A DNA stretch of 64,000 nt from Ophelia neglecta (Eukaryota), in contig OZ260666.1 of the NCBI GenBank assembly GCA_965285935.1, forward strand, positions 43,028,001 to 43,092,000. Reading direction: 5' to 3'. The position numbers were made by a program, and so were the translations under genes. Below, piece by piece: positions 14,464-64,000 of this stretch (positions are counted from its first letter, which is position 1; each line of letters starts with the position of its first letter). The notes under the pieces are model-generated. The model did no database searches. It was not told the origin of the DNA and was given only the letters and a program-made list of their open reading frames with translations.

Positions 14464-16122
14464 ATGAAAATGGGCAGCCAGGAGGCCAGTGGACTTTTCA
14501 CAATTTCTCAGAATGCTCACTGGGGTCATCCAGGAGAACGGACATCACTCATATCACAAGAGGAAATGGAAGCTGAGCTGGAGAAATTCATGATGGAATT
14601 TACCAACTTAGAGATAGGGTCAGAGAGCCAGTCTCTGGTGTCTAGCAGCCCATCTCCCCCCAGCTCTGTAACCACGCCGATGTCCTTCAAGGACTGGCAG
14701 ACCCTGGAGAAGGAGATGACTGTGGCTACAGTACACTGTCCCCCCAAACCCAGGTCCCCGTCCCCACCTGTGTTTGAGAACTACCGGGCCGACCTTGACC
14801 TTGACAGTATACCCCCAGCAGAGGATCTGGTGAGGAGGGCTCAGGGCCTAAAGGTCATAGACCAAGTCATTGACCAGTTTGGAAGCCCAACCAGTGATGA
14901 CACACCAAAAATGGGATTCAAAAGTGGTGATGTATCACACAATACTACTGAATCAGAGGCTCATACCCAGGTGACAAGTGATAACCAAGTAATGAGGAGG
15001 GATAATGCTGGTTTGGTCATCAACAATACAAATAAAGTCCCCAACCGGCGCTCTCTGGACGCTTCACAATACATGAGTGTGTCAGATACCATTAAGAAAC
15101 TGCGGGACCCTTCCAGTATGACTGGTAGTTTGGATCGTAGAAGAGCCAACCCATCAACACCTAGCCAAGGTGTTTGTCCAATTACACCTATCAATAGTAA
15201 ATCTCCAAAGCAGGCACTAAATGGACAGAATGGAAATATTACACACACAACAAATGGGTCAACTAGTCATCACACAAATAAGTCTAGTCAGAAAAGTACT
15301 GTTATTGCAAATGGTCATGTCCAAAAGGAAAAGCCATTCATTCCAGAAAAACCCAACTTGGTGAATGGAGGTTGTCAACCCTCCGTCAAAACTGTCTCTG
15401 GGAAGGAGTCTGTGTCTCAGAAGTCCCAGTCTAAATCTCAGCTCTCTGGCAGTGATTATGACAATGACAGTCGCTCCTCAGGTAAGACCAGGAGCAGGTT
15501 TATGTCAACCAGCAAAATGATCTTCAAAGAAAAACTATCACCCAAAAAGTCTCCAAAAAGGAGTAAAAAGGCTGAGAAAATGTCACCTCCATCGTTATCA
15601 AAGGTCCCCAGCAACAGTACCTCATCTGGTATTAAAGACAAGTCAGGGAATAATGTGAACATTAAGGAGGAGAAAACTAAACCCATCTCTGTGAATGGGT
15701 CAAAACCCATCTCTGTGAATAGGTCAAAACCCATCTCTGTCAATGGGTCAAAACCCCTACCTGTCAATGGGTCAAAGCCAGCCAATGGGCGGGCCATGAA
15801 GGAGAGGAGGGACAGTAACTATGACAATGAACCTTTGTTGGATATGTCTTCTGGTTTCCCTGACAACCTGGACACTGATGACAGTGCTATAAAAAGTCCA
15901 GGTAGTAACAAACAGTCAAGAGTGGTGGATGGGGACTATGACAATATCAGCATTACCAGTAACAATCCCCATGACAACAATGTGGTTACCAATGGCAGCA
16001 TCCAAAATACAATGAACTCCAGTGGCTGGAATGAGAGCTTGAGAGAAACATCCCAGTCTCAGCTGATATGTCCCAAGAGAAAAAAGTCTGGCTGGCGGTA
16101 CTTGTGTTGTATAGCCAAACAG
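14464..16122 (+). CDS. Large alternative first coding exon (553 aa, Ser/Lys/Asn/Pro-rich, probably disordered) of the tensin-like gene
   Basis: 563-codon ORF in otherwise ORF-poor DNA; donor AAACAG|GTAAAT after ...WRYLCCIAKQ at 16122 (1659 nt, phase 0), compatible with the phase-0 acceptor of the C1 exon at 40926. The last 10 codons of the ORF-track entry are probably intronic. Confidence 0.8.
15679..15789 (+). repeat. Coding 24-bp tandem repeat (KPISVNGS x4-5)
   Basis: KPISVNGS KPISVNRS KPISVNGS KPLPVNGS KPANG within the 14464 exon. Confidence 0.95.
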
Positions 16123-31736: not shown

Positions 31737-34350
31737 TATAACACATACATATATCATAAATAGATCTAAGATGGACACCTGTCAAAAAGATGAAGAGAGG
31801 AACTATGTGAAATGAGGGACGAATCATTTAGCCAGAGATATGGCAAATGTCAAACAAACTGGCTGAGCAGAACACTATCTGAGCTGTACTCCTGTGAATG
31901 TTGATGACTGTGGCCAGACATCAGGCTACAGATACACGTATACAGGTTTACAGAGAAGGCAAACTAAAGCCATCATCAATGGGACTTTCTCTTGTCATAA
32001 AGAAAGATTTTACACTACGCTAAGTATCTGAAATTTGTTTTGTTTCAGATAGATATTTGGAGTTTTTTTGGTTGATCGGGAATCACAACTACAGAATAGA
32101 AATTTGTTGAATATTGCTTGGACATATTTGAATTTCTCTTCTAGAGATTAAAAGTCAATCACAATTGACTGCAGTTTTTATATTGCAAGCATGTGATATA
32201 GTCTTTGTTCCTATCCACACATCCTAGCCTCCACTCCTCTCTGCCCCAAGTCCATAAGTTGAGCCCCCCCCCCCCCCTCTGCCCCCAGGCCCAGGAGTGC
32301 AGTATAGGTGTGTGATCTAGAGAACAGTTGGTCTTTCAGCTCAGGAACTCCTCAGTCCTCACACACGCCTAAGCTGGGGAGCTGGGTCCATGAGGAAGTG
32401 TCTATCCCTGCTAGAATACAATGATATCATAGGAGTGACATTGCTGCTGAATCATGAGGATTGTCTTTATATAAATCAAGAGTTCCTCAGGAGCTGTGAG
32501 GATATTGGAGCTGTGAAGTTCCGTTGGACACTTTCATTCATAATCTAGCTGTACATATGAAGTTTTTGTCAACCTGTATTCATTTCGATGACCCTGTAGG
32601 TGGGTCTGGCTTGAATGTGCACAGGCAGAGTTGAAGGTCATGGACAGACCAGCTGTTGAGCAAAACACTAGGAGTCCTTTGATGTGCCATGGTTTTTCGA
32701 TGCAATGTTTTTTTATAATCTCAGGCTGTGTGGTAAAGGCCTGGACACGTCTTCATACACAAGATGATCCCTGTGTGAAAATAAATATATACAATTGCTA
32801 CTGAGAGGAGCTCTGTAAGACGTCGTTATTGGTTGATACTTAGGATAGATTTGGATTTAACTGCCTAAAAGATTACATTTCCTATAGAAGAATCGATTTC
32901 TGATTGGCCATTTTAACTGGCTGCACAGGAGCAGTCATCTGTGGGTCTTTAAAACAATAATCAATCATAAATGGAACGCTGAATTGGAAAGAGTTTCTTC
33001 ATGGCAAATTGGGCAACTGCTTTGACAAAATCAGTGATCATATTGTTGGTAGCAAAGCAGTTTTAATGACTTCTAATACTGATAAATAATGTGTCGGCCA
33101 TTAGCAGTCATGCTGTAATTAAAGAGTAATGTCATTTCTCATGTTGGTAGGAACTGAGAAAATATGAAATCATGAACGTATATCTCGTGTGTCTCCACTA
33201 ATGGATTTGTAGATAAGGGGAAGGTTAAAGAAACTGCCTGAGTGTGACAAGATCAAGATCTTTGTGGTGTGCAGGGAGGGCTGAGCAGGGCTCAGAGAAG
33301 ACTGGTATCCAGAGATGTTTGTCTGGGGTTAATAGGGCGCTGAGAGAGTGTGCCCTGTCAGGGTGGCCGCACAGCTGGGTGGCCTCCACAGGGACACCGT
33401 CCACACAAGGCACCAAGGCTCACTCTTCCTGCTGCAAAACCACATGCTTCAATGACAGGAAACACCCTACTTATAAATCTATATACTGGTAGCAACAATT
33501 ATTACACAGAAAGTTCTCTTCATCTTTTTGGAATCAAACCAGTGGCTTTCCATGCAAAGTCCAACCCTAATTACCAGTGGCTGAGTAATTATTCAGAGTT
33601 CCAGTAATGAGTAACACATAATATAATAATGCCTTTGGACATTCAGGATATCTGATACAGATCTGAATTAAAATCACAGCACACAAGTTACAAATACTTG
33701 TGGTGAGGCTACATCTGTTGTCGGAGTGGTAAAGTGCCTGTAATCTGTGTGACATGCCACACACTAGAGCAGGATGGAGATTTCTATTCACTAATATTGA
33801 AAACAGTCACTTCTCTTGGGGACACTTTGTCTAGAATTGTTTTCACTCCCATTTTGAAATAACCCAGGGTTGCAAGCATATCCAGAAGTGAGAGCCTAGA
33901 ACTACATCTAAAGAGTGATCTCTCTGGGACTGCTACCATCACAAGGAATTCCTGTCAGTGAACATTTAATTCTCTCTTTATACTTTTAATATATATACAT
34001 TTGTATAGTGCAAAAAAGACTACAATATGAAATTGAAGTTGTTAAAACGTGGTGGATTCGTTGAGCAGGAGGATTTTACTTGGATTCAGGTGGGTCACAT
34101 GATAAAGAACCAGTTTTAAAGAAAATGATTTATGTCCAGTAATTGTAGGAATACACTGTAAAGTATTTCCTCATATATACATTGTAGCTACCTGTAGTCT
34201 GGATCATGGAACCTATTGCACTGTAAAATGAGCATGATTGGTACTTGTAGATGGTTCAGTAGTGTAGCTACATGCCAGTTTTAGGCTGGAGATATACATT
34301 TATTGTAGACAATGTCGAGAAGGAGAGTTACTTGTTCTCAAGACAGTCTT

Positions 34351-37300
34351 GAGCAGTAGAATCCTGTTGGAGTCCTTGTATTATAACCAGTTTAGAGCAG
34401 GACATGTCTCTGTATTGTAATATGTCTTGAGCAGGGGAGGTCCCTACGTTAACTTGCTCTGAGCAAGAGTGCTCCCTGTATTGTAACCTGTTTGGAGCAG
34501 TAGAGGTCCCTGTATAGTGTCCTGTTTTGAGCAGGAGAGGTCCCTATGTTGTAACCTGTTTTGAGCAGATGACCCTGTCTTGTACCTGACTTGAGCAGTA
34601 GAGGCCCCTCTATTGTAACCTGACTTGAGCAGTAGAGGCCCCTCTATTGTAACCTGACTTGAGCAGTAGAGGCCCCTCTATTGTAACCTGACTTGAGCAG
34701 TAGAGGCCCCTCTATTGTAACCTGACTTGAGCAGTAGAGGTCCCTCTATTGTAACCTGACTTGAGCAGTAGAGGCCCCTCTATTGTAACCTGACTTGAGC
34801 AGTAGAGGCCCCTCTATTGTAACCTGACTTGAGCAGTAGAGGCCCCTCTATTGTAACCTGACTTGAGCAGTAGAGGTCCCTCTATTGTAACCTGACTTGA
34901 GCAGTAGAGGCCCCTCTATTGTAACCTGACTTGAGCAGTAGAGGTCCTTGTATTGTTACCTTATTGAGCAGTAGAGGTCCCTGTATTGTTACCTGTATTG
35001 AGCAGTAGAGGTCCCTGTATTGTTACCTGTATTGAGCAGTAGAGGTCCCTGTATTGTTACTTCCTGTATTGAGCAGTAGAGGTCCTTGTATTGTTACCTG
35101 TATTGAGCAGAAGAGGTCCCTGTATTGTTACCTGAATTGAGCAGTAGAGGTCCTTGTATTGTTACCTTATTGAGCAGTAGAGGTCCCTGTTTTGTTACCT
35201 GTATTGAGCAGTAGAGGTCCCTGTATTGTTACTTGTATTGAGCAGTAGAGGTCCCTGTATTGTTACTTCCTGTATTGAGCAGTAGAGGTCCTTGTATTGT
35301 TACCTGTATTGAGCAGAAGAGGTCCCTGTATTGTTACCTGACTTGAGCAGTAGAGGTCCTTGTATTGTTACCTGTATGGAGCAGTAGAGGTCCCTGTATT
35401 GTTACCTGTATTGAGCAGTAGAGGTCCTTGTATTGTTACCTGACATGAGCTGTAGAGGTCCTTGTATTGTTACCTGTATTGAGCAGTAGAGGTCCCTGTA
35501 TTGTTACCTGACTTGAGCAGTAGAGGTCCTTGTATTGTTACCTGTATTGAGCAGTAGAGGTCCCTGTATTGTTACCTGACTTGAGCAGTAGAGGTCCTTG
35601 TATTGATACCTGACTTGAGCAGTAGAGGTCCTTATATTGTTACCTGTATTGTTACCTGTATTGAGCAGTAGAGGTCCCTGTATTGTTACCTGTATTGAGC
35701 AGGAGAGGTCCCTGTATTGTTACCGGTATTGAGCAGTAGAGGTCCTTGTATTGTTACCTGTATTGAGCAGAAGAGGTCCCTGTATTGTTACCTGACTTGA
35801 GCAGTAGAGGTCCTTGTATTGTTACCTGTATGGAGCAGTAGAGGTCCCTGTATTGTTACCTGTATTGAGCAGTAGAGGTCCTTGTATTGTTACCTGACAT
35901 GAGCTGTAGAGGTCCTTGTATTGTTACCTGTATTGAGCAGTAGAGGTCCCTGTATTGTTACCTGACTTGAGCAGTAGAGGTCCTTGTATTGTTACCTGTA
36001 TTGAGCAGTAGAGGTCCCTGTATTGTTACCTGACTTGAGCAGTAGAGGTCCTTGTATTGATACCTGACTTGAGCAGTAGAAGTCCTTATATTGTTACCTG
36101 TATTGTTACCTGTATTGAGCAGTAGAGGTCCCTGTATTGTTTCCTGTATTGAGCAGGAGAGGTCCCTGTATTGTTACCTGTATTGAGCAGGAGAGGTTCC
36201 TGTATTGTTATCGGCATTGAGCAGGAGAGGTTCCTGTATTGTTACCTGACTTGAGCAGTAGAGGTCCTTGTATTGTTACCTGACTTGAGCAGTAGAGGTC
36301 CTTGTATTGTTACCTGACTTGAGCAGTAGAGGTCCTTATATTGTTACCTGTATTGTTACCTGTATTGAGCAGTAGAGGTCCCTGTATTGTTACCTGTATT
36401 GGGCAGGAGAGGTCCCTGTATTGTTACCTGTATTGAGCAGGAGAGGTCCCTGTATTGTTACCGGTATTGTGCAGGAGAGGTACCGGTATTGTTTCCTGTA
36501 TTGAGCAGGAGAGGTCCCTGTATTGTTACCTGTATTGAGCAGGAGAGGTTCCTGTATTGTTATCGGCATTGAGCAGGAGAGGTCCTTGTATTGTTACCTG
36601 ACTTGAGCAGTAGAGGTCCTTGTATTGTTACCTGACTTGAGCAGTAGAGGTCCTTGTATTGTTACCTGACTTGAGCAGTAGAGGTCCTTATATTGTTACC
36701 TGTATTGTTACCTGTATTGAGCAGTAGAGGTCCCTGTATTGTTACCTGTATTGAGCAGGAGAGGTCCCTGTATTTTACCGGTGTTGTGCAGGAGAGGTAC
36801 CGGTATTGTTTCCTGTATTGAGCAGGAGAGGTCCCTGTACTGTTACCTGTATTGAGCAGGAGAGGTTCCTGTATTGTTACCTGTATTGTGCAGGAGAGGT
36901 ACCGGTATTGTTACCTGTATTGAGCAGGAAAGGTCCCTGTATTGTTACATGTATTGAGCAGGAGAGGTCCCTGTATTGTTACCTGTATTGAGCAGGAGAG
37001 GTCCCTGTATTGTTACCGGTATTGTGCAGGAGAGGTACCGGTATTGTTTCCTGTATTGAGCAGGAAAGGTCCCTGTATTGTTACCTGTATTGAGCAGGAG
37101 AGGTTCCTGTATTGTTATTGGCATTGAGCAGGAGAGGTCCTTGTATTGTTACCTGACTTGAGCAGTAGAGGTCCTTGTATTGTTACCTGACTTGAGCAGT
37201 AGAGGTCCTTGTATTGTTACCTGACTTGAGCAGTAGAGGTCCTTATATTGTTACCTGTATTGTTACCTGTATTGAGCAGTAGAGGTCCCTGTATTGTTAC

Positions 37301-37820
37301 CTGTATTGAGCAGGAGAGGTCCCTGTATTTTACCGGTATTGTGCAGGAGAGGTACCTGTATTGTTTCCTGTATTGAGCAGGAGAGGTCCCTGTACTGTTA
37401 CCTGTATTGAGCAGGAGAGGTCCCTGTATTGTTACCTGTATTGTGCAGGAGAGGTACCGGTATTGTTACCTGTATTGAGCAGGAAAGGTCCCTGTATTGT
37501 TACATGTATTGAGCAGGAGAGGTCCCTGTATTGTTACCTGTATTGAGCAGGAGAGGTCCCTGTATTGTTACCTGTATTGAGCAGGAGAGGTTCCTGTATT
37601 GTTACATGTATTGAGCAGGAGAGGTCCCTGTATTGTTACCTGTATTGAGCAGGAGAGGTCCCTGTATTGTTACCTGTATTGAGCAGGAGAGGTCCCTGTA
37701 TTGTTACCTGTATTGAGCAGGAGAGGTTCCTGTATTGTTACATGTATTGAGCAGGAGAGGTCCCTGTATTGTTACCTGTATTGAGCAGGAAAAGTCCCTG
37801 TATTATAACCTGTCTTCAGC
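34351..37820. repeat. 34-bp minisatellite, about 100 copies, consensus GAGCAG(T/G)AGAGGTCCCTGTATTGTTACCTG(TA/AC)TT
   Basis: Units start at 34593, 34627, 34661, 34695... (34-nt period); degenerate copies at 34351-34592; higher-order duplications present. Confidence 0.98.
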
Positions 37821-40925: not shown

Positions 40926-41037
40926 CCCCAGGACTTGGAGTCGCAGACCCACACGTTTAAAGCCAAGGTATTCAAGCGTCCTAGGAACTGTAGTCTGTGT
41001 AAGCAGCTGGTCTGGAATCAAGGAAGTGCTTGTAGAG
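40926..41037 (+). CDS. TNS: Tensin C1 (phorbol-ester/DAG-type zinc finger) exon 1: PQDLESQTHTFKAKVFKRPRNCSLCKQLVWNQGSACR
   Basis: Acceptor TTTTTTTCAG|CCC, donor AGAG|GTAAGA (phase 0 in, phase 1 out); H-x-F...C-x2-C pattern; close resemblance to vertebrate tensin-1 PEDLEAPKTHxFKVKxFKKVKPCGICRQ (recalled, not searched). Confidence 0.9.
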
Positions 41038-41299: not shown

Positions 41300-41337
41300 T
41301 GTGTAAATATGTTTGCCACAAGCGCTGTGAACCTAGG
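41300..41337 (+). CDS. TNS: Tensin C1 domain exon 2: (V)CKYVCHKRCEPR
   Basis: Acceptor TAATTTCAG|TG, donor AGG|GTGAGT; phase 1 in matches the previous exon (G+TG=Val) and supplies C-x2-C-x4-H-x2-C; phase 0 out. The last C1 cysteine must come from a further exon. Confidence 0.9.
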
Positions 41338-46038: not shown

Positions 46039-46164
46039 ATGCCAGTGTTTACCACTTCCACTCATGGTCCCGTGATGCAGTATTTGTCAGTGAAGTCGAT
46101 AGCCAAGCCAAAACCACCGAAGCCCAAAGCACCAACACCCCCTCCTCGAAGACGAAGGGGCCAT
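46039..46164 (+). CDS. Probable alternative first/internal exon MPVFTTSTHGPVMQYLSVKSIAKPKPPKPKAPTPPPRRRRGH
   Basis: In-frame stop at 45994 upstream of the ATG; donor CAT|GTAAGT in phase 0; Pro and Arg runs use mixed synonymous codons (cca/ccg/ccc/cct; cga/aga/agg), which suggests selection on the protein; possible acceptor TCTTCTCTCAG| ending at 45988. Confidence 0.6.
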
Positions 46165-57332: not shown

Positions 57333-59581
57333 GTCAGTAGGAATTCACCTAACTTTCCTCCCTTTAGGGAAAATGTTTGGTTCAATGTTTTGAAGAAGAA
57401 AATGTAGTTTCGTATCACCTGTAAATATAATTTTGATAACTATTGAAGCCACCAGAATTTATCTCCAGATCCTTGCTATGGTTCTGATAAAGTACATAGC
57501 CTCACAGTTATACAGTTCTGATTTGTGCCTGCATCTGTCCATGATAACATATCTTTTGACTCCAAACTCCCTTTATCTTAAAACAAAAGTTAAAGAAAGT
57601 AAAAGTGATGATAAACGCCTGTTGTGTCATTTCTTCTCTGTGTTTCGTAGTTTTGTGATACTTTTTGGAGACGATTGAGAGATGATTTCTTAGTATGACT
57701 TCAAAAAGAGTCTAAATGTTATTAAAAACTAAATATCTTACATAAGAAAATAAGTTGGAAAAATTGTGTGGGAACGTTGTTTATATCAAGTGTATGATGA
57801 ATAGCCACCAACAATAATATATATGTTAATAAGCTCAATCTATCCTGCTAGGTTTTCTAAGGAGCAAAAATCAGACCAGAATGAATGCCATCTTTGTTTA
57901 CATCCCTGGAGTAATTTGTCTGAGCTGATCACTAAAGTGGAGATCAGTTTAAACTCTCACAATATTCAATTTGTTATAGTCAAAACTTTGATTTATATTC
58001 CAAAACTGCCACTGTTGTTTGTTATTGCATACTTATATTTTTTTGAGTAAGGTAGTTTTTGCCAATGATGAAAGCCCATATTTAGAATTTAATCTTACAG
58101 TCCTGGGTCTAGTCACTTGTAAATGCTGCAATTTAGTTATAATGGAAAACAGATTATACAGTGTGTGCAAATTAAGTCAGTAGTTTTCTATCTAATCACA
58201 GATCTGGCCCACATCTTGCTTCTTCTTACTCAGACCAATGGCCTAGTAGCTGGCTAGGTATAAAATATCTGGCATATTTCATGTAGAATGTATGACTGTA
58301 TAAGCAGTGATGTAGCTATATTTGTACTGCCTGATTGGTCACAGGTAATAGTACTTATGTATTGGCTGTTCCATGCCTACCTCAGTATTGCTGCTGTGTG
58401 TTGCTGTGCCTCCACAGACAGGAGCCAAGAGTTCCCAACTTCTGAGTTTCTGCCCACAGTATACACACACACACACATATATATAAATGTATATGTATCT
58501 TTCAGTAGCAGCTAACTTGGGCAGGCAAATATATATCAAGACTATCTCTCCTGACTCGAACCACCTGTGATATGGTACAGCCTGCTTGGGAGCTTGGCAG
58601 GTAAAAATCAGGCTGTGCTGATATCAGGCTGCAGGGCTGGCCACCAACTTTACTGTTTACTAGCTATGTCTGCAACTTAAAGTCAGTCCAAGAAAACAGG
58701 AAGAGAAAAAGCTGTAGGTATATGGGAATGTGTATTAAGTAAATCATCTCTGCTCAAACTGGAGCTACTTGCAAGTATCCCTGGATAAATTGTGCTTTCA
58801 AACATGAAGATGAAAGTGCAGTAAAATCCTTCCCATCAAATGAATAAAAAATATAAATGCATTTGTAGCAGCGCCCTATCGAAACTGCAAGAAGTTTAAC
58901 CAACTTTAAATTTCATGTTGTTTTTACTGTATGAGATTCAAGGGAATACATCAATGCTCAACTGAATGCAAACTGGAAATAAACTATAGCAGCATCTCAA
59001 GAGGTGGCTGATGTAGAGATGAGTGGGTTTGCCTGACTGCTGCTCAGGTCAGGCTTGTACTGTGGTATTTCTGAGTTTGGCAGACTCTGATGTGCAAAAA
59101 TAGCCTGCCAGTCAGTGCATGAGTAGTGATCTCAGGTGTGGGGTGTACAAGAGGGTTGGTTGAGCTTCTACACAAGTTACTGGCCCATCACAGGAACCAC
59201 ATCATGGGCCTCCCTGGGTAGCCTGGCGTCATCAGGCCGCTATGTGCCACACTGGGCTTGTCCATCACTGTCACTGAAGTACACCACCAGGTCTACTCTA
59301 CACCATGATTCTCCACAAGAAATAACTCACTGAAAAGTCCTTCAGTGAAATTCAGGGAACTGCAGATTTATATTGTTTTGACTTGTTTGCCTACATCTGT
59401 GTTCTGGTGGTAGTCTTACAAGTTTTACCCCTGGTGGGTACAGAGGAGGAGAGCCACAAAAACAGTTCAAAAAACTGTGATTATGTGCAGTTATGAGCTG
59501 TTCTGTTCTTTGAGCGGCTGGTCCTAAAATATCACTGGGAGTTTGGCGAGAATTGGGAGACCGGAGGAGCAGGTCCCACTA

Positions 59582-59614
59582 ATGTCACAGCCATCATCTC
59601 CTCCCAGGACACAG
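59582..59614 (+). CDS. Candidate mini first exon MSQPSSPPRTQ feeding the giant exon
   Basis: ATG plus 11 codons ending CAG|GTAAAC in phase 0, 307 nt upstream of the phase-0 acceptor of the giant exon; a few CpGs locally in a CpG-poor background. Confidence 0.35.
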
Positions 59615-59921
59615 GTAAACTGCAGCCCCTTTTGATGCCTAGGCAGTGTGCTGTTCTCTCAACAAGTTATTCACTACTCATTGAGGAGCTTTGAAGTAAA
59701 CTTCTTCATGGAAACCTAGGATTACACGCTAAGCATAAGCATTTTGTACCTAAATGCTCTAATATATTGCATATATTGGATATAGAAGTGAAGTGAGAAT
59801 ACCTGCACCCGTTATTGATACTTCTGAGAACACATTGCATAGCGCAGAGGTGTGTTGCTGTGATTACCCCAACCAGGACAAGTAACATATAAAGCCTATG
59901 GGCCTCTTTTCCATGTTGTAG

Positions 59922-62900
59922 CATGGTTTGATGGAAGCTCAGTTTCCTCGTGCACAGCAATCAAATCAGTACGTATGGGATGAGCGATCACATGGGTACA
60001 AAAGATTACAGTATGACTGGGTAATATTGCCTGAATCAAGCCCAAATCCCCACACCCATCACCAGTTACTGCTTGTTCCTTCACACCGCCCATGTTTTCG
60101 TCGGAACCGAGGCCTAGTGAATGCACCCTTTACCCGCTCACGTAGTTTGCCGCAGATTCCCAGGCTTCCACTTCAGTTCAAGAAGGGTCGTCTGCCGAAC
60201 ATCGGTACTGACCACAAGCCTCATGTTCACTTCTCTCTCAGTGAGGAATTCTGTGAAATTGAAAGGTGCAGTAACAGCAATGAACAAAAGGAAAAAGACA
60301 CGGTTATCACAAATGAACCAGTTAGTGAGGATGACAATAAATCGGAGTGGTTAAGGTACAATTTATCACCGGTGCAGGAGGAGTCGGAGGGAGGAAGCTC
60401 ACGGAGCAACTCCCGCTCTGACTCCCACAGTACAGTGTGTACAGACTCTAGGAGCAGCACACATTCTGACTCGCGGAGCACCACCAGTAATACACCACAA
60501 ACTGACTTGTGTAGCAGTCCCCCTGGAGGACAACTCAACCCCAAACCACCATTTAGGAGGACACCTACCCCAGATGTAGAGAAAAGTCTGAGTGACTCTG
60601 AACATAACTCGGACAAGTTCTCCTTTGCTAGCACTCCAACTCTTGACACGGAAATGCTAGGAGGCTCATCTAGCTCTACATTAACGCCTGAAATTAATGA
60701 CAAAGCAAAAGACGGTCGAGTTGTGCATAGTACAAGCCATAATAATATTGAAACTTATAAGCAAAGAGAAATTGAACAATTACGTAAATCTTCTAATGTG
60801 CGTAGTGCTGATAGGAGAGGAGCTGGGCATGTACGGCAGAAAAAGCACAAGCTGAAGGAATCTAAAAATAAAAATGAAGTACTTCAGGCAAAGACAATTG
60901 TGAAGGACAGTGCAGTGGAAAGAGGTAACATTCAAGCTACTCAGCAAGAAACTGAACAATTTAATCAGACCCAAGGCCAAGCTGAAAACAAAATAGAACA
61001 AAAATTAGCAACACAACTTCAACAACAGCATCTTCTTCTCCAGCATCAAGAGAAGCAGCAGTTGCTGCATAAGCAGCAGTTGGAAGAGCTAAGAGCTCAG
61101 CAACTTGTCCAGCAAAAACAAATTCTTGAACAACAGCAACTTATACAAGCAGAACAGGACCTATTTCTCAAACAGCAGACACAGCTGCGGTTAGCACAGG
61201 AGAAACGCCAGTTCCTTCTCCAACAACAAGAATTACAGCTCAAGCTTCAAAAAGAGAGGCAAAGTTGGCAGGAACAAGTTTTACAGCAGCAAGAGAAACA
61301 GAAACAACAAAATCTTCAGCAACAAGAAAATCAGAAGAAGGAGCAACAAGAAAATCAGAAGCAGCTAATTGCACAAAAACAAAGTACACAAATAAAGCTA
61401 CAGCAAGAAGAGCTGAAGGAACAAATTTTACAACAACAAGAAGCTCAAATAAGGCTACAACAAGAAAACCAGAAACAGCTATTTCTACAACAACAAAAAG
61501 CTGAAATAAAACTACAACAAGAAAATCAGAAAAGTCTAATTCTACAAAAACAGCAACAACAAATAAAGCAACAGCAAGATCAGCAAGAACAACAAATTCT
61601 ACAACAACAAGCTCAATTGAAGATACAGCAAGAAAATCAGAAACAGCTACTTCTGCAACAGCAGCAAGCTCAAATACCAGTACCAGAACAACCACAGGAC
61701 CAACCGATACCTCAACAGCCACAAGCCCAAATAAAGCTACAGCAAGAAAGGAAAAAACAAATTGTTCGACAGCAAGGAGATCAAATAAGATTCCATCAAC
61801 AAAAACCGAAACAAACTCTTCAACAAGAACAATTCAAGTTAGCTGAACAACAAGGAAAGCAAGGGCAACACAGTCAAGAACTGCATCAGGAAAAGCAACT
61901 TCAACCATTTGTTCGAGACGAACAAAGTTTGTTTCAAGTGCAGCAAGACAAACCCCGCATACATCAGCAGCAGGCACAGCTACTACAGCAACATTACAGT
62001 AGGATACAGCAGAAAAAGGGGGGATCTTCAGTAAGATACAAGCAACAGATAAATGATCACTACAATGTACAAAATAATGATTTGTTAAATCAAGGCAGTG
62101 ATTCAGCAGTAAGCCACAATAAGCAGATTTTCAAAAAGGCAACAAACATAGCAGAGAAGAAAAGGGCAAAACCAATTGGCATTGATAAAAATGTTCAAAC
62201 GAATGGTAGTTTGATGATGGCAAACTACCAGTCAGGTAAAGTCGGCAATGAGGTACAGATGTCTAATGCAACAGCTAGCACAGGCTCTAATCTGAAAGGC
62301 ATGACTACTGACCAGAGAGAGGTTGTTTCTCATATACATAGAGAACATCAACTTGGTCCATTAGCCGAGCCTGTCCCTGGCTTCCCCATAGGGCATAGTT
62401 CTCTAAGGCAGCCGCAGGGAGGAACTATTCCTGGGGCTCATGGGTATTTTGGACCTGTAGTTGTAGGGGGGCAAGTGCCCATTGGAAGTCTTCCTTCTAG
62501 AAGGAGACCTGCTTCTCTGGCTGTAGTCCCTGGCTCAGCCACACAGCAAACTACTGTAGATAGTGGGTATAAGAAAGAGATTACTGGAGTGTCAAATCTA
62601 ACAAGGGCTAGCTCCCCTTCAATGAATGCACCATCCACAGTAGTGTTACACAGGGAAGTTACCACCCATAGGGGACTAAAGCCACCCATCTCCAATCAAG
62701 ACTTCATACAGGTCTCTCCTCGTAGCAGTGTCTCCTCAACATGCCCATTAGATGAGATGGTGTACCCAGCTGGGAGCAATGGTATGTTAGTAAATGATGA
62801 TGTGCTACATTCATTGAAATTCCATGACAACCCTTTGTATGAAGGCATGGATCCACGCCTCTTCCAGAGGTACTCTGAGACCCAGCTAGTAAATCATGGA

Positions 62901-64000
62901 GAGTTTTCTCCATCACCGATCTACCTTAATGAGAGAGTATATACTGATTCTGTTGGCCGCAGCTGGTCTCGATACCAGCAAGATATTCCTGCAAGTGTCA
63001 TTTCTAGTGAAACTACAGGCCAACCAACTGCAGGGGAGTTTATAGAAGAGACTCATTTACAGTCCATGCCCACCTATGTCAAAGATAGAGATTTTTTGAA
63101 CTCTCAAAACAGGTTTCATGCTGGTTGCTGTCCCGGGGTCGACCTGTGTTGCCACAAAGTGGGAAGTGACCATGGACAGCATGTATGTGTTCAAAAGGAA
63201 TCCCACCAAGGATTGACTGCCAGTTTGGGGTCTGGATATTCATTGCCATCACTCCACTCAGTAGCTGGGCCTTCAGATTTTGCCCGAGGGCATGGTTTTC
63301 TTGAGACCCACATTCACAATGTTATACAAGAGATACCCCAAAATAAAACCATTGTGACTGACAAAGTACTGAGTAAAGAAATAAAATCTGACTACACTGA
63401 AAAACCAACTTTAAAAGTCAGAAGTGTTTCTCCGCCCCCAGAGCCAAAGAAATATGTTGCAGCTGTGCAGCTTTCTCCTGAAATACCTAAGGAGGAACCT
63501 AAGATAGAGAGACAGGAGCTCTATGTTCCTACGTCAGATGCCTCCCTTCCAGAAAAGTACTTTACTGTCAAAGTCAGTCCAACTAATTTGCCAAATACTC
63601 TAAGCCTTAAAACTAAAGTATCTGATAATCAAGACTTAGATGCTCTAAATTCTGGTTTCAAAAGAACCTCAAAATCAGAATTTACAAAAACAGAAATCTT
63701 AAATCTTCCACATAAGAAGGAAGTTCATGAACAAATCACACCAGTTAAGAGACCAACTGCTGAGTATTTTGTGAAAAAGCAGAAGCAAAAGGAATTGTAT
63801 GAATCCCCGAAGAAAGAAGAGAAGGACACAAACATCTCTAACATCTGTGACTATGTTATTGATGTCTGTGATGGCGTCATCAGCATGTGCAATGATATTG
63901 AAGAGCGCCAAACTCCAAAGAAGATTCAAGATAACTACAAGGGCATACCAAGAAAGAGCTGGGAAGACACTGATAAGAGGGAATATACAGAGAAAATTAA
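59922..64000 (+). CDS. Giant coding exon (at least 1359 codons, open to window end): low-complexity, Gln-rich predicted coiled coil, likely a tensin isoform N-terminal extension
   Basis: Hand translation with codons starting at positions divisible by 3 shows no stop from 59922 to 64000 (HGLMEAQFPRAQQSNQYVWDERSHGYKRLQYDW...KSWEDTDKREYTEKI); preceded by CTCTTTTCCATGTTGTAG| where the TAG is the in-frame stop; in-frame ATG at 59931. Absent from the ORF track because it has no terminator in the window. Confidence 0.9.
61389..61835 (+). repeat. Coding 54-57-bp repeat (about 19 aa, QIKLQQENQKQLxLQQQxA), about 8 copies
   Basis: Unit starts at 61389, 61446, 61503, 61560, 61614, 61671, 61728, 61782. 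Confidence 0.9.

Follow-up and report, generated by a model that had tools for sequence, protein, structure and literature searches.

A 6-kb open exon in the C1-domain intron of a tensin gene from Ophelia neglecta and its probable use in a giant, C1-less isoform

Introduction

Among cytoskeletal scaffolds, the giant ankyrins, as presented in passages of Jegla et al (2016; PMC5135030), owe their length to one exon of more than 3 kb, which encodes a poorly conserved polypeptide of biased composition and is easily missed by gene prediction. The exon described here lies in a tensin gene of Ophelia neglecta, in a stretch of 64,000 nucleotides (nt) on the forward strand of contig OZ260666.1 (positions 43,028,001 to 43,092,000; hereafter, the window). 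It is a single open exon of 6,093 nt inside a scaffold gene, with compatible flanking phases and a donor candidate that needs a bulged register. The long ankyrin exons are internal, follow the UPA domain, and are biased to Ser and Glu, whereas this one belongs to a different gene, is N-terminal and likely tied to a promoter, is rich in Gln and Glu/Arg, and is known from two sequences only. An earlier note on the window had drawn the ankyrin analogy, which holds for a giant exon in a scaffold gene, but the exon probably replaces the C1 domain from an alternative promoter and is not a mid-gene cassette.

The human tensin layout, as given for TNS2 in passages of a review (PMC12383349), shares the order C1-PTP-C2...SH2-PTB with the gene considered here. 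It also notes that TNS2 has a shorter isoform that behaves in its own way, and it calls isoform-specific roles of tensins largely unexplored; the review's passages on layout mention neither a giant isoform nor a single alpha-helix (SAH) nor an NPxY motif within tensin. No giant-exon tensin isoform was found described in the open-access listings and abstracts covered, and most full-length tensins retrieved comprised 1,000–2,000 amino acids (aa). SAHs serve as spacers and constant-force springs, according to passages of Wolny et al (2014; PMC4183817). The myosin-10 SAH treated there shares with a segment of the giant exon product its E/R/K-richness, the pairing of opposite charges at i+4, and a predicted continuous helix; the myosin-10 construct has 97 residues, compared with about 230 here, where the helix is flanked by disordered arms and known from prediction.

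The reading favoured below, with a probability of roughly 0.65, is that an alternative promoter yields a giant tensin of about 3,600–3,850 aa that lacks C1, the giant exon being spliced onto the tensin core. This size is that of the giant exon plus the 1,578–1,787-aa cores of Haliotis and Lingula, corresponding to roughly 400 kDa. If true, such a one-exon form would place tensin among the scaffolds lengthened by a giant exon. The reach of this finding is limited to two sequences from non-model animals, with splicing as predicted.

Results and Discussion

The frame is a genuine giant coding exon

59,922-66,014 (window part 59922..64000), + strand: giant exon, 6,093 nt = 2,031 codons, phase 0 to 0
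59902..59921, + strand: phase-0 acceptor preceding the giant exon, 11 of 14 pyrimidines

The earlier note had reported a stop-free frame of at least 1359 codons directly after a pyrimidine-rich acceptor, and such a frame is indeed present. On the + strand, it is open from 59,922, just after the AG, and covers 1,359 codons by the end of the window. With the neighbouring genome stretches added (numbering above 64,000 continues the window coordinates into them), it comprises 2,032 codons (59,922-66,017) and terminates at the stop 66,018-66,020, ∼2 kb past the window. Its absence from the track of open reading frames (ORFs), on which the note had remarked, is probably due to its running off the window; an in-frame ATG is present at 59,931 (codon 4).

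Across the same stretch, each of the other five frames contains 74–170 stops, and the longest open run in 300 base shuffles of the giant-frame sequence was 164 codons. Contigs from three DNA runs of one sample span the frame without joints or internal indels; thus, an assembly artefact is not the explanation. The sample may be the assembly's own source, and the contigs, being DNA-like, are silent on expression. Seven single-base variants were found in the frame, four synonymous (P 0.036), three missense, and none nonsense, and none of the four indels in the 10 kb examined fell inside it (P 0.023), both being weak figures from one sample. Neither of the two parts of the exon that were searched had a paralog in the same genome.

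A non-functional or artefactual frame, be it repeat-driven, transposon-derived, or misassembled, would draw on the A/Q/E-rich low complexity, which lowers stop frequency. The shuffles, with their maximum of 164 codons, the single copy of the two parts, the agreement of the DNA contigs with the assembly, the lack of any Pfam family, and a 39%-identical homolog with conserved motifs and helix chemistry (see below) all speak against it, so that this explanation is largely refuted and extremely improbable. The giant coding exon as such is solid.

The exon lies within a tensin gene, in the intron dividing the C1 domain

40926..41037, + strand: tensin C1-domain exon 1 (C1a), phase 0 to 1; Pfam C1_1 at E 1.3e-4, under the curated cut-off as a partial domain; tblastn matches to many tensins
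41300..41337, + strand: tensin C1-domain exon 2 (C1b), phase 1 to 0; its donor opens a 36-kb intron
77,493-77,531, + strand: exon with the last C1 cysteine (C1c), which ends the 36-kb intron; predicted splice target
87,546-159,499, + strand: PTP-like, C2, central, SH2, and PTB exons, downstream of C1c
14464..16122, + strand: candidate first coding exon A of tensin, an ORF of 553 codons with a phase-0 donor, 5′ of the C1 exons

Family and motif searches, together with tblastn of named tensins, mapped a complete tensin gene to the strand that carries the giant frame, in line with the tensin context assumed in the note. A PF10409 match over the cut-off lies at about 91,958-92,624, the top named matches of the PTP-exon protein were tensins, and tblastn of named tensins placed the SH2-PTB tandem of the C-terminus in exons 147,325-159,499. 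In a tree of 22 tensins (a set without annelids), the gene clustered with Lingula and molluscs (96/97), outside a clade of nine molluscs (100/99). The C1 domain is split across exons flanking the giant frame, in the order C1a, C1b, 36-kb phase-0 intron, C1c, core. The giant frame therefore sits inside the intron that splits C1.

Exon A joins the C1 exons and the core in frame and without a stop, the splicing being predicted. A stop follows 10 codons past its donor. The exon is of low complexity, with a basic stretch and then a Cys-Cys pair at its end, and a Pfam search of it gave no match. The Cys-Cys pair might be a lipid-anchor site.

As a separate observation, Pfam C1 (PF00130), present here, also appears in the annotation of tensins from amphioxus, Lingula, molluscs, arachnids, and sea anemones and in that of tensin-1 models of fish. 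This spread contrasts with the view, in passages of PMC12383349, that C1 is unique to TNS2 and a late acquisition.

Candidate splice sites permit in-frame joins on both sides

59582..59614, + strand: exon C, candidate for a short first exon; 11 codons with a phase-0 donor
46039..46164, + strand: exon B, candidate for an alternative first exon; 42 codons between its ATG and a phase-0 donor

Nine other acceptors of the tensin gene have 9–13 pyrimidines, a span that includes the 11 of 14 at the giant exon; other nearby AGs score 9–11. Both candidate first exons were read from sequence only. Exon C ends 307 nt 5′ of the giant exon, joins it and the core in frame, and is likely its leader exon; leader, giant exon, and seven downstream exons give a stop-free translation. 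A phase-1 internal exon at 59,514-59,614 was discarded, as this reading puts the giant exon out of frame, whereas phase 0 from the ATG at 59,582 fits. Exon B is one of 15 rows from a scan of the intron for ATG-to-donor segments, most of which are probably chance. It contains a Lys-Pro-Pro stretch loosely resembling the shared start of long mollusc extensions (see below), a resemblance noticed post hoc and with a loosened pattern; blastp gave no significant match.

Extending the contig in search of a donor or a stop, as the earlier note had advised, led to a stop and to a phase-0 donor candidate one codon before it. The candidate reads GAG followed by GTATAGTAT, with the intron from 66,015 and the stop of the frame inside that intron. 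It pairs with U1 at −8.8 kcal/mol through a one-base bulge at +4; for human donors, one-nucleotide bulge registers including +4 are described in passages of PMC4856993. By this measure, it ranks second among the 232 GTs in the frame and first among those in phase 0, and its value is within the span, −4.2 to −11.8, covered by 13 further donors or candidate donors in the tensin gene. Of 1,745 intronic GTs, just 10 attain −8.8. Such a GT is the codon preceding an intronic stop in 2 of 5,291 cases, and lies within 20 codons of one in 21 of 1,609.

A single homolog

62820..62846, + strand: FHDNPLYEG motif with NPxY, aa 967-975; 9-aa run identical in the homolog; candidate PTB/FERM ligand

A whole-length search that scored 7,979 candidates yielded one homolog, an unnamed ENA protein of 1,632 aa (P0001; E 2.7e-123), and HMMER, queried with aa 790-1345 against 1.84 billion representatives, found nothing beyond it. 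Identity is 39% across 1,320 aligned residues and concentrated in short blocks, the longest identical runs being two of 9 aa, one of them FHDNPLYEG. The C-terminus of P0001 consists of Glu-Val and then 15 residues, 10 of which belong to the AT-rich-coded set FYMINK, and thereby resembles a donor read through into an intron. Of two metagenome scans for the locus of the homolog, one produced 8 matches to the pattern and the other 119, with no relative confirmed, and two parts of the frame had no usable match in the ESM Atlas. Conservation in relatives, for which the note had proposed a protein search, is seen in one homolog at the protein level; its locus outside this genome was not found by these scans.

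Other tensins carry alternative N-termini at the same acceptor

N-termini were compared among 216 proteins; the tensin search itself was restricted to 110–2,000 aa, so that longer isoforms are under-sampled. Of 49 distinct N-termini placed before the exon equivalent to C1c (77,493-77,531), 23 were without C1, as classed by the residues just before the acceptor, and 16 of these 23 were at least 14 aa long. They occur in annotated mollusc and spider tensins. The longest belong to Ruditapes (XP_060586100.1; 881 aa) and Babylonia (XP_076459011.1; 586 aa), to which a Bradybaena model missed by the pattern (BFZ22153.1) adds one of about 364 aa. The three longest of the 23 were read whole and contained no upstream C1. 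As in the giant exon product, a long low-complexity N-terminus replaces C1 at the same exon in these mollusc tensins, but their exon structure is not visible, whereas 2,031 aa come from one exon here; and the three long extensions contain no NPxY and 17–20% E/K/R, in contrast to the predicted SAH segment and the NPxY of the giant exon. These N-termini establish a plug-in point at the C1 intron, not orthology, and the models are themselves predictions. On this comparison, the C1 intron is an old site at which molluscs and spiders attach alternative N-termini.

Separately, long C1-less N-termini from a clam and two snails (P0166, P0192, and P0206) are near-identical in their first 11 residues and have little else in common, which suggests that this start is a conserved N-terminal motif of an old mollusc isoform.

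The last cysteine of the C1 zinc finger, encoded by C1c, belongs to its ligands. A cassette exon between C1b and C1c would part this cysteine from the rest of the finger, inserting 2,031 aa into C1 and disabling it in a product above 4,100 aa. The symmetric 0-0 phases and the normal acceptor would allow such use, exon A, C1a, C1b, giant exon, and core also translating without a stop, and giant ankyrins are made this way (passages of PMC5135030). With a suitable leader merely 307 nt upstream of the giant exon, and with no C1 upstream in the three longest non-C1 N-termini at this acceptor, cassette use appears quite improbable.

Giant tensin isoform or separate termination

The frame, its position, the in-frame joins on both sides, and conservation at the protein level are directly established. 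Splicing into the tensin core is well motivated and likely, as predicted from these features. Several observations weigh against it. Expression and both junctions are predictions from DNA and protein sequence. In the canonical register, the donor scores just −5.8 and is non-consensus at +4/+5, and the bulge measure was picked after the sequence had been seen. An ATTAAA lies at 66,458, 440 nt past the stop of the frame, so that termination there is still conceivable. GC content at third codon positions (GC3) is 0.32–0.46 in the giant frame, compared with 0.61 in the core exons of tensin. P0001 may or may not come from a tensin gene; the first ∼640 aa of the giant exon product are without homolog, a part missing from P0001, and the last ∼140 residues of P0001 fail to align with the last ∼45 here. 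Moreover, six windows in the body of P0001 equal its tail in FYMINK richness. Among proteins of 3,557–5,000 aa, 0 of 1,688 candidates contained the region of aa 790-1345, albeit in a weak search. The giant exon has no significant similarity to the long N-termini of molluscs (best E 1.9), and NPxY appears by chance in 7% of shuffles of the frame.

Part of this would be expected if the frame ended at its own stop, either as a same-strand nested gene consisting of leader and giant exon (about 2,040 aa) or as an alternative final exon for the 5′ tensin exons. The natural stop at 66,018 with the ATTAAA behind it, the non-consensus donor, the GC3 unlike that of the core exons, and the record of P0001 as a stand-alone protein all fit. 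On the other hand, the best phase-0 donor of the frame coincides with its last codon, and exon A likewise has a stop close behind its donor. An unnamed P0001 with an intron-like tail may be what a splicing-blind gene call would produce, a lone ATTAAA is unremarkable in AT-rich DNA, and the intron is already known as an entry point for alternative N-termini. The earlier note had left the choice between a giant tensin isoform and a nested gene; phases, donor candidate, and comparisons favour the isoform, and termination at the frame's own stop is unlikely, but still carries weight through that stop.

For the C1-less giant tensin, an internal promoter in the C1 intron would drive leader, giant exon, and tensin core. 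Translation would start from the short leader exon or from the codon-4 ATG, and bulged U1 pairing would allow use of the donor candidate that precedes the stop by one codon. The giant exon would thereby replace the C1 domain and not be inserted mid-gene.

Anatomy and possible role of the giant arm

60252..60701, + strand: Ser-rich segment, aa 111-260, 21% Ser; without homolog support, in the part missing from P0001
61002..62021, + strand: Gln-rich segment, aa 361-700, 39% Gln; holds a 19-aa tandem repeat
63828..63911, + strand: conserved amphipathic helix, aa 1303-1330; predicted local distance difference test (pLDDT) 57–80 by block; aligned in P0001
64,182-64,874, + strand: predicted SAH, aa 1421-1651, ∼230 residues; continuous helix, pLDDT 72–94 by block
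65,640-65,753, + strand: conserved helix, aa 1907-1944, confident in the AlphaFold model

The Ser- and Gln-rich composition seen earlier was reproduced (percentages above), the tandem repeat having a 57-nt (19-aa) unit at about 61,347-61,676. Likewise, no folded domain was recognised: a Pfam search of the full frame was empty at E ≤ 1, and that of the window part gave one weak match under the cut-off (E 0.22). The remaining anatomy comprises a disordered middle studded with motifs, a charged segment, and an end rich in Ser, Thr, and Asp. Two AlphaFold models, one for aa 790-1345 and one for 1420-2031, both built on a two-sequence alignment, were of low confidence except for the helices at 1303-1330, 1421-1651, and 1907-1944; in the former model (mean pLDDT 36), helix 1303-1330 is the sole confident element. 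The spacing in this helix may resemble that of a vinculin-binding site, a likeness that any amphipathic helix would show. An RVxF motif had no match in the frame.

The long helical segment falls beyond the end of the window, outside the view of the earlier note. Its residues 1440-1645 are 69% Glu/Arg/Lys and contain no Pro or Gly. Opposite charges are paired at i+4 in 90 instances, compared with 48 in shuffles (z 8.7), and the corresponding region of P0001 has the same pattern (z 8.6). The charged segment is further marked by z −5.7 at i+8 and a charge period of 8.4, with no heptad period; pairs at i+3 are not enriched (z 0.7). With the exception of i+3, the predicted segment fits the SAH definition in passages of PMC4183817. 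Two sequence matches in the PDB, both confined to this charged helix, were rejected as compositional.

PTB domains of tensins bind integrin NPXY motifs, according to passages of PMC12383349, so that the conserved NPLY qualifies as a candidate ligand. It lies in a predicted disordered region and is conserved between two sequences only. The NPxY might bind a PTB or FERM domain, possibly that of tensin itself. Most of the arm is predicted to be disordered; it would contain a rod rich in Gln, several short binding motifs that are conserved, and the ∼230-residue SAH, whose length, at 0.15 nm per residue, would be about 35 nm. Judged by this anatomy, the arm could act as a long spacer or low-force spring that keeps its motifs distant from the core that binds integrin and actin; the most plausible setting is adhesions that bear load, muscle attachments for example. 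Two specific handles on the mechanical action of such arms would be the predicted SAH and the conserved NPxY. More speculatively, the NPLY could mimic an integrin tail in series with the ∼35-nm helix and hold the PTB domain of the same or a neighbouring molecule until load is applied at a muscle attachment. Such a force-gated or self-chaining tensin is doubtful; if it existed, a worm-lineage tensin would have swapped its C1 domain for one 6-kb exon to this effect.

Other features of the locus and its surroundings

Intronic tandem-repeat arrays lie at about 34,300-37,550, at about 74,150-74,650, and at L037:8,989-9,547 (44-nt unit, 12.6 copies). On another contig, a full-length PTEN_C2 match (C8:38,206,102-38,206,515, + strand) falls inside one open frame of 1,138 aa, and this family member appears to be intronless across that domain. 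Upstream of the window, by ∼128–146 kb, the minus strand carries long ORFs (L034-L036), which by their look may represent an IRF-type transcription factor, genes of the C2H2 zinc-finger kind, and a LINE-type element. Downstream of tensin, at about 165,900-188,200 (L012-L014), there are two duplicated ORF pairs, one Cys/Pro-rich on the minus strand and the other consisting of two similar ORFs of 263 codons on the plus strand.

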